This document shows, piece by piece, positions 10,063 to 11,496 of a stretch of 64,000 nt of DNA; position 1 is the stretch's first letter; the number at the start of each line of letters is the position of its first letter. The DNA lies in NCBI RefSeq assembly GCF_056712565.1, contig NZ_CM160072.1. The stretch is one strand, 5' to 3'. The notes under the pieces were generated by a model. The model made no database searches. It saw only the letters and a program-made list of their open reading frames with translations, and was not told where the DNA came from. Made by a program: the position numbers and the translations under genes.

Positions 10063-11496
10063 ATGAATAAAAAATCGTTATGGAAGCTAATTCTGATATT
10101 AGCGATCCCATGTATTATTGGCTTTATGCCAGCTCCGGCAGGATTAAGCGAACTGGCGTGGGTGCTTTTTGGTATTTACCTGGCGGCCATTGTGGGGCTG
10201 GTTATCAAGCCTTTCCCGGAACCTGTCGTACTGTTAATTGCCGTCGCCGCATCGATGGTCGTGGTGGGTAACTTATCAGGTGGGGAATTTAAAACCACCG
10301 CCGTATTAAGCGGTTACTCTTCCGGTACCACCTGGCTGGTGTTTTCTGCGTTTACTTTAAGCGCCGCGTTTGTAACCACAGGCTTAGGTAAACGTATTGC
10401 CTATCTGCTGATTGGTAAAATTGGTAGCACTACCCTGGGTCTGGGTTACGTTACGGTATTTCTCGATCTGGTACTGGCTCCGGCAACACCGTCTAACACC
10501 GCGCGTGCGGGCGGCATCGTGTTACCGATCATCAACAGCGTGGCAGTGGCTTTGGGATCAGAACCGGAAAAAAGTCCGCGTCGTGTTGGACATTACCTGA
10601 TGATGTCCATTTACATGGTCACCAAAACCACCAGCTATATGTTCTTTACCGCAATGGCGGGGAACATTCTGGCGCTGAAAATGATCAACGACATTCTGCA
10701 CCTGCAAATTAGCTGGGGTGGATGGGCGTTAGCCGCCGGATTGCCGGGCATCATTATGCTGCTGGTCACCCCGCTGGTGATTTACACCATGTATCCACCA
10801 GAAATTAAGAAGGTGGATAACAAAACCATCGCTAAAGCGGGCCTTGCCGAACTGGGACCGATGAAAATCCGCGAAAAAATGCTGCTCGGTGTCTTTGTAC
10901 TGGCGCTGCTGGGCTGGATTTTCAGTAAGTCTCTGGGGGTTGATGAATCCACCGTGGCAATCGTTGTTATGGCAACTATGCTGCTGCTGGGCATCGTTAC
11001 CTAGGAAGACGTGGTTAAAAATAAAGGCGGCTGGAATACCTTAATCTGGTACGGCGGTATTATCGGCTTAAGCTCCTTATTATCGAAAGTTAAATTCTTC
11101 GAATGGTTAGCTGAAGTCTTTAAAAATAACCTGGCATTTGATGGTCACGGTAACGTTGCTTTCTTCGTTATTATTTTCCTCAGCATCATCGTGCGTTATT
11201 TCTTCGCTTCTGGTAGTGCCTATATCGTTGCCATGTTACCGGTATTTGCCATGCTGGCGAACGTCTCCGGCGCACCGTTAATGTTAACCGCGCTGGCACT
11301 GTTGTTCTCTAACTCCTATGGCGGCATGGTTACTCACTATGGCGGCGCGGCAGGTCCGGTCATCTTTGGCGTGGGTTACAACGATATTAAATCCTGGTGG
11401 TTGGTCGGTGCGGTACTGACGATATTAACCTTCCTGGTGCATATCACCCTCGGCGTGTGGTGGTGGAATATGCTGATCGGCTGGAACATGCTGTAA
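10063..11496 (+). pseudogene. ybhI: DASS-family (tricarboxylate/anion) transporter interrupted by in-frame TAG at 11002..11004
   Basis: Track ORFs 10063..11004 and 11011..11496 are in the same frame, separated only by TAG-GAA-GAC; together 477 codons, the full-length protein. Confidence 0.8.

Follow-up and report, generated by a model that had tools for sequence, protein, structure and literature searches.

The closest relatives of YbhI with solved structures are exchangers of the DASS family: LaINDY (PDB 6wtw) and the chloroplast transporters DiT1 and DiT2.1 (9mcr and 9mcu). In the DASS fold, TM1-4 and TM7-9 form a scaffold, while HPin, TM5, TM6, HPout, TM10, and TM11 form a mobile transport domain (PMC7553777). 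YbhI is homologous to these proteins over its full length and shares the plan of scaffold and transport domain. CitT and TtdT are also DASS-E by annotation.

In E. coli K-12, ybhI (b0770) is annotated as a "putative tricarboxylate transporter." The divergently transcribed gene ybhD encodes a repressor of ybhH, which lies upstream of ybhI: deleting ybhD de-represses ybhH (PMC9068703). Also in K-12, ybhHI was reported to be regulated by Nac, and a ybhD mutant has a growth phenotype that depends on L-malate (PMC9068703).

We analyzed a stretch of 64,000 nucleotides from contig NZ_CM160072.1 (assembly GCF_056712565.1), which we will call the window. The window has the same gene, of the same length and in the same operon context, as the intact ybhI of K-12 and the intact alleles of UTI89, APEC O1, and LF82 (WP_001036491.1), but codon 314, which is TGG (Trp) in all four of those strains, is TAG. 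The features of the interrupted gene are:

10063..11496, + strand: ybhI pseudogene, encoding a DASS-family (exchanger-type) anion permease; 477 codons and the normal stop, interrupted at codon 314
11002..11004, + strand: codon 314, a premature amber codon (TAG); the mutation is at 11003, now A and ancestrally G
10063..11004, + strand: N-terminal open reading frame, 313 amino acids, ATG start; the predicted truncated product, with TM1-4, HPin, TM5, TM6, TM7, and TM8
11011..11496, + strand: C-terminal open reading frame, 161 amino acids, GTG start; codes for TM9, the arm helix H9c, HPout, TM10, and TM11

Positions 10999..11013 read ACC TAG GAA GAC GTG, and the codons before these are ATC GTT. 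When 10063..11499 is translated, codon 314 is the only internal stop, and the natural stop is codon 478. Both open reading frames are in the same frame, and 313 codons, the stop, Glu, Asp, and another 161 codons add up to 477. If codon 314 is read as Trp, the product matches Pfam's model for this family (PF00939, Na_sulph_symp) with E = 1.3e-194 and 648 bits, as compared to the curated cut-off of 27 bits. Residues 4-474 align to positions 2-472 of the 472 positions in the profile. Because the match runs from end to end, the two open reading frames must be parts of a single gene rather than neighbors by chance. A preliminary description of this DNA had reported the two same-frame open reading frames, separated by TAG GAA GAC, and had proposed that the 477-codon read-through product was of full length and that the stop would truncate the protein at about two thirds. 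The coordinates and lengths turned out to be exact, the profile match bears out the full length, and 313/477 agrees with two thirds.

We then compared the gene to other alleles. Relative to the intact allele from UTI89 and APEC O1, just 1 of 1434 positions differs: 11003 is A instead of G. This is a G-to-A transition that converts TGG (Trp314) to TAG. The gene in the window is 100% identical, across all 1434 nucleotides, to ybhI from strain S88 and from the type strain ATCC 11775. LF82 differs from the window at four positions and has Trp314. K-12 differs at 45 nucleotides, which amount to three amino-acid changes besides the stop, and it also has W314. Furthermore, Trp314 is invariant across 16 homologues of YbhI from other genera, down to 64% identity, and the plant proteins DiT1 and DiT2.1 have Trp at this position as well.

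To see how widespread the two forms are, we searched 5426 complete genomes of E. coli with 30-mers. One 30-mer was centered on the variant, and a second register was shifted to avoid a nearby SNP that varies among lineages; one of the registers is specific to the B2-type flank. With either register, the count of genomes with the TAG form is 74 of 5426. The TGG form is present in 5210 (96%). Outside of the complete genomes, the exact 313-amino-acid product is found on at least 1000 public contigs, and so is the exact 161-amino-acid product.

These counts bear on whether the stop codon is an artifact. If the true base at 11003 were G, then ybhI would be intact, and a single-base substitution is the type of change that sequencing or assembly errors make. 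But the same TAG allele occurs in 74 complete genomes that were assembled independently, and these come from many laboratories, hosts, and decades. The type strain itself was assembled twice independently (as ATCC 11775 and as JCM 20135), and both assemblies have TAG; the exact products of both open reading frames also recur on the public contigs. We give an error at this position virtually no chance. The preliminary description had raised the issue of a base-call error, which these genomes settle: the A at 11003 is real. It had explained the stop by one G-to-A substitution that hit a Trp codon, and the alignment to UTI89 and APEC O1, in which 11003 is the only difference, upholds this. It had also considered that orthologues of ybhI might end at this position; they do not, given the prevalence of TGG and the conservation of W314 among the homologues. 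As judged from the sequence, then, ybhI in the window is a nonsense-mutation pseudogene and a lineage-specific gene loss.

What would the truncated protein lack? Using phmmer to compare YbhI to proteins in the PDB, we found DiT1 (E = 1.4e-83), DiT2.1 (E = 7.5e-78), and LaINDY (E = 2.7e-69), and all three alignments span residues 6-472, approximately. To place the stop within the structure of LaINDY, we calibrated the numbering on Glu146, Arg159, Val163, and Glu283: the number in the chain of 6wtw is the number in the paper plus 3. In the alignment, R148 of YbhI corresponds to Arg159 of LaINDY, which is the surrogate for Na1, and R378 corresponds to His392, which is the surrogate for Na2 and lies in HPout. 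Both R148 and R378 are invariant in the 16 homologues. The equivalents of both sodium sites are positively charged in both proteins, but the second site is His in LaINDY and Arg in YbhI. Other equivalences are E271 to Glu283 (TM7), W314 to Met329, and A390 to Ala404 (HPoutb). Based on the profile, the full-length homology, and the charged residues at the sodium sites, YbhI is a member of the DASS (SLC13) family and probably of its exchanger subclade, DASS-E. It is a putative di/tricarboxylate exchanger.

Since W314 aligns to Met329, between the landmark for TM7 (E271) and the landmark for HPout (R378), the stop comes after TM7/TM8 and ahead of TM9. Unlike the DASS exchangers of known structure, YbhI in the window ends before TM9, HPout, TM10, and TM11. 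By homology, residues 314-477, which are lost, comprise TM9, the H9c arm, HPout (with the invariant R378-YFFASG), TM10, and TM11, and include many invariant residues. The C-terminal open reading frame does align with the last third of each of the solved exchangers (DiT1, DiT2.1, and LaINDY), and the landmark in HPout falls within the aligned part. So, if the homology is a reliable guide, the 313-residue product would be missing half of the transport domain, as well as half of the substrate site, and we infer that the truncated YbhI could not transport.

Two other attempts to describe the second half of the protein were less useful. We had considered FSNSYGG (residues 415-421) as the motif of the second hairpin, and dropped it, as the alignment to LaINDY sets the tip of HPout at R378-YFFASG. 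A comparison of the N-terminal and C-terminal halves of YbhI with hhalign, in search of a counterpart to the first P-S-N-T hairpin, gave no signal (probability 0.07), which reflects an alignment that was too shallow (Neff = 1.5).

Another possibility is that the gene has been split rather than inactivated: ribosomes could reinitiate at the GTG at 11011, and the fragments of 313 and 161 amino acids could reassemble as a two-piece DASS exchanger. The GTG is just two codons (six bases) past the stop. Also, the same G-to-A change converts GGGA to AGGA (11003-11006), which resembles a Shine-Dalgarno sequence, 4 nt upstream of the GTG. We also built an AlphaFold2 model of YbhI from the 16 homologues. 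Its pLDDT averaged 68 and fell under 50 at residues 378-438, so we used it only for the limits of the helices near residue 314. The model has a helix at 295-308, a loop at 309-313, and another helix at 314-342, which places residue 314 right after a short loop, and the break in a short loop between helices of the scaffold. Split membrane transporters sometimes reassemble at such loops. However, a spacing of only 4 nt between AGGA and GTG is sub-optimal, and the intact alleles have the same GTG in the same surroundings, so these did not evolve for reinitiation. The two fragments together would lack W314, E315, and D316, and both W314 and D316 are invariant. We found no split DASS transporter among the homologues; the other short forms that were listed are partial genes or separate lesions. 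Finally, RefSeq calls the locus a pseudogene. We consider a working two-piece transporter to be very unlikely. Rather, the C-terminal open reading frame is most likely not translated, or is translated only in trace amounts.

Alternatively, a full-length and functional YbhI might be made if the amber codon were decoded, either by a suppressor tRNA or by efficient readthrough, whether natural or programmed. The remaining frame is undamaged, with no second lesion in the 1434 nucleotides relative to UTI89, and the allele has now lasted 80 years or more. But at the very low divergence within CC95 (3-4 SNPs per 49 kb, as described below), an undamaged frame is expected anyway. Nor is the stop conserved, given that the great majority of genomes have TGG and that all of the homologues have W. 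Because the in-frame stop is not conserved among orthologues, we ruled out programmed recoding of the stop codon (of the Sec or Pyl type, or by readthrough). As for natural readthrough, E. coli terminates rather efficiently at UAG followed by G, and it reads through UAG at a basal level of about 1% or less.

We also looked for amber suppressors. There are no tRNA genes in the window. We searched the complete genomes for 30-mers from two classical amber suppressors, supE (a tRNA-Gln whose anticodon is CUA) and supF (a tRNA-Tyr with that anticodon). The supE probe matched 156 genomes, and the 60 of these that were listed are laboratory derivatives of K-12 (C600, DH5alpha, DH1, TG1, J53, and others), and this confirms that the probe works. 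Not one of these 60 is among the listed genomes with TAG in ybhI. The supF allele was found only in the laboratory strain OV2. Overall, decoding of the stop as a sense codon seems extremely unlikely.

While examining these matches, we noticed that RefSeq has no annotated feature at the suppressor tRNA gene in any of the 60 listed supE genomes or in the one supF genome. Apparently, tRNA genes whose anticodon is CUA are missed by the annotation pipeline.

Overall, we are quite sure that premature termination yields a non-functional, truncated YbhI exchanger, from a nonsense pseudogene that is inherited within a lineage, insofar as this can be read from the sequence. The amber codon at 314 would end translation after 313 of the 477 residues, and the truncated product would retain the first structural repeat along with TM7 and TM8.

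Which lineage carries the mutation? The carriers of TAG include S88, ATCC 11775, and JCM 20135. Among the genomes listed, the sources of the carriers are mammals (humans, swine, a dog, and a monkey), birds (chickens and a duck), and seawater, and the serotypes of the carriers include O1:K1:H7, O2:K1:H4, O2:K1:H7, and that of S88 (O45:K1:H7). S88 belongs to subgroup D of CC95, whereas UTI89, which has TGG, belongs to subgroup B (PMC5451516). The type strain comes from Copenhagen, where it was isolated in 1941, and its closest sequenced relative is S88 (PMC4334874). Since the type strain carries TAG, the mutation must be older than 1941. The finding of 74 genomes in both registers of the 30-mer is consistent with a single origin on a CC95-type allele of ybhI. 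We propose that there was one G-to-A event on such an allele, before 1941, and that the allele was then inherited vertically within one branch of the ST95/CC95 extraintestinal pathogenic E. coli (ExPEC), which would include S88, ATCC 11775, and the O1, O2, and O45:K1 isolates. If so, then G11003A would be a clean single-SNP marker for this sub-branch of CC95.

Across the first 49 kb, the window differs from S88 by SNPs at 29827, 39033, and 40174 only (it is identical over 1..29826), and it differs from ATCC 11775 by SNPs at 21579, 29827, 31148, and 39033 only. With just 3-4 SNPs per 49 kb, the window represents a third and very close member of the same sub-branch.

The nonsense allele is already recorded in databases. 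The RefSeq entries for S88 (ECS88_RS05015) and ATCC 11775 (EAS44_RS17040) describe "ybhI, anion permease" as a pseudogene with an "internal stop." These pseudogenes share the TAG at codon 314 and the gene neighborhood (ybhD and ybhH-ybhI-ybhJ) with the window, and there are no differences within ybhI. In our searches of the literature on ybhI, ybhH, ybhJ, and pseudogenes of ST95, we did not find any papers that discuss the lesion (most matches to "YBHI" are to a culture medium). So the nonsense allele is known from the databases, via RefSeq: an ordinary pseudogene, fixed in its lineage, of a DASS-family exchanger that E. coli can dispense with. In GenBank, however, deposits of the TAG allele often have two separate "ybhI" proteins. 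The lesson for annotation is that open reading frames such as these, of 313 and 161 amino acids, belong in a single pseudogene call.

The genes around ybhI are intact:

7798..8751, - strand: ybhD, divergent LysR-type regulator (Pfam HTH_1 and LysR_substrate; WP_000679972.1, the same protein in S88 and UTI89)
8935..9987, + strand: ybhH, PrpF-family isomerase, upstream of ybhI (Pfam PrpF, E = 5.8e-168; WP_000723628.1)
11679..13940, + strand: ybhJ, aconitase-family hydratase, downstream of ybhI (Pfam Aconitase, E = 7.5e-88; WP_000593922.1)

For all three of these genes, the strains with TAG have the same proteins as UTI89, so only the transporter was hit. We scanned 8700-14100 for promoters and terminators, and the sites were no more numerous than in shuffled sequence, so the scan says nothing about polarity onto ybhJ.

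Between ybhI and ybhJ, there is an ERIC/IRU repeat (11497-11625), which is the only copy in the window. It folds into an extended hairpin with imperfect pairing (-44.4 kcal/mol, z = -6.2). The sequences of the two classic ERIC primers, ERIC2 and ERIC1R, match it exactly, at 11540-11561 (- strand) and 11562-11583 (+ strand), respectively.

The window has several other features of note:

47052..50773, - strand: fiu (catecholate siderophore receptor), interrupted by an IS4 element at 49042-50467
24841-24985, + strand: Moco (molybdenum cofactor) riboswitch, upstream of moaA (Rfam, 103 bits, above the gathering score)
45217-45287, - strand: naRNA4/CssrE, a REP-derived nucleoid-associated RNA (Rfam, 72.7 bits, above the gathering score)
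approximately 40396-40593, - strand: remnant of a NADAR-domain gene between rhlE and dinG (an incomplete pseudogene in RefSeq, at the same coordinates, in S88 and ATCC 11775)

The IS4-family element in fiu is 1426 bp long and contains a transposase gene (49108-50454; Pfam Nterm_IS4 and DDE_Tnp_1). It is flanked by a 13-bp target duplication, ACCCACGCCGGGG, at 49029-49041 and 50468-50480. This insertion is absent from S88 and ATCC 11775 and distinguishes the window from both of them. A 30-mer from the junction was found in 29 other complete genomes. Their backgrounds clearly differ (they include VR50, UMNF18, and an Origami strain of K-12), which suggests that fiu is a hot spot for insertion by IS4. 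None of these 29 genomes is among the 68 listed genomes with the TAG allele of ybhI.

The TAG allele is not the only way that E. coli has lost ybhI. In 74 of the 5426 complete genomes, there was no match to ybhI at all. We also identified a second lesion within the gene: strain MINF_7C (LR890270.1, 1915-3118) has an out-of-frame deletion of 230 bp, which removes nucleotides 538-767 of the gene (corresponding to 10600-10829 of the window). Like the TAG allele, the deletion inactivates ybhI while ybhD, ybhH, and ybhJ are kept; most of the isolates with the deletion are from humans. A 30-mer across the junction of the deletion is present in 14 of the 5426 complete genomes, so the deletion is rarer among these than TAG is, and the 205-amino-acid C-terminal fragment from the deletion allele is found on 474 public contigs. 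The deletion allele has 43 mismatches to the gene in the window and has TGG at codon 314. So, this knockout arose independently of TAG, which fits with ybhI being dispensable.

The persistence of the TAG allele shows that the loss of YbhI, an accessory transporter, is tolerated. Given at least two independent knockouts (the nonsense mutation in CC95 and the deletion elsewhere), a more speculative reading is that losing ybhI could be adaptive in extraintestinal E. coli. Both the type strain of E. coli and a globally distributed branch of ST95/CC95 ExPEC appear to be without a functional YbhI, and yet they have kept its partner genes, ybhH and ybhJ. Natural pairs such as S88 and UTI89, which are one base apart in ybhI, could be useful for assigning the substrate of the ybhDHIJ cluster.
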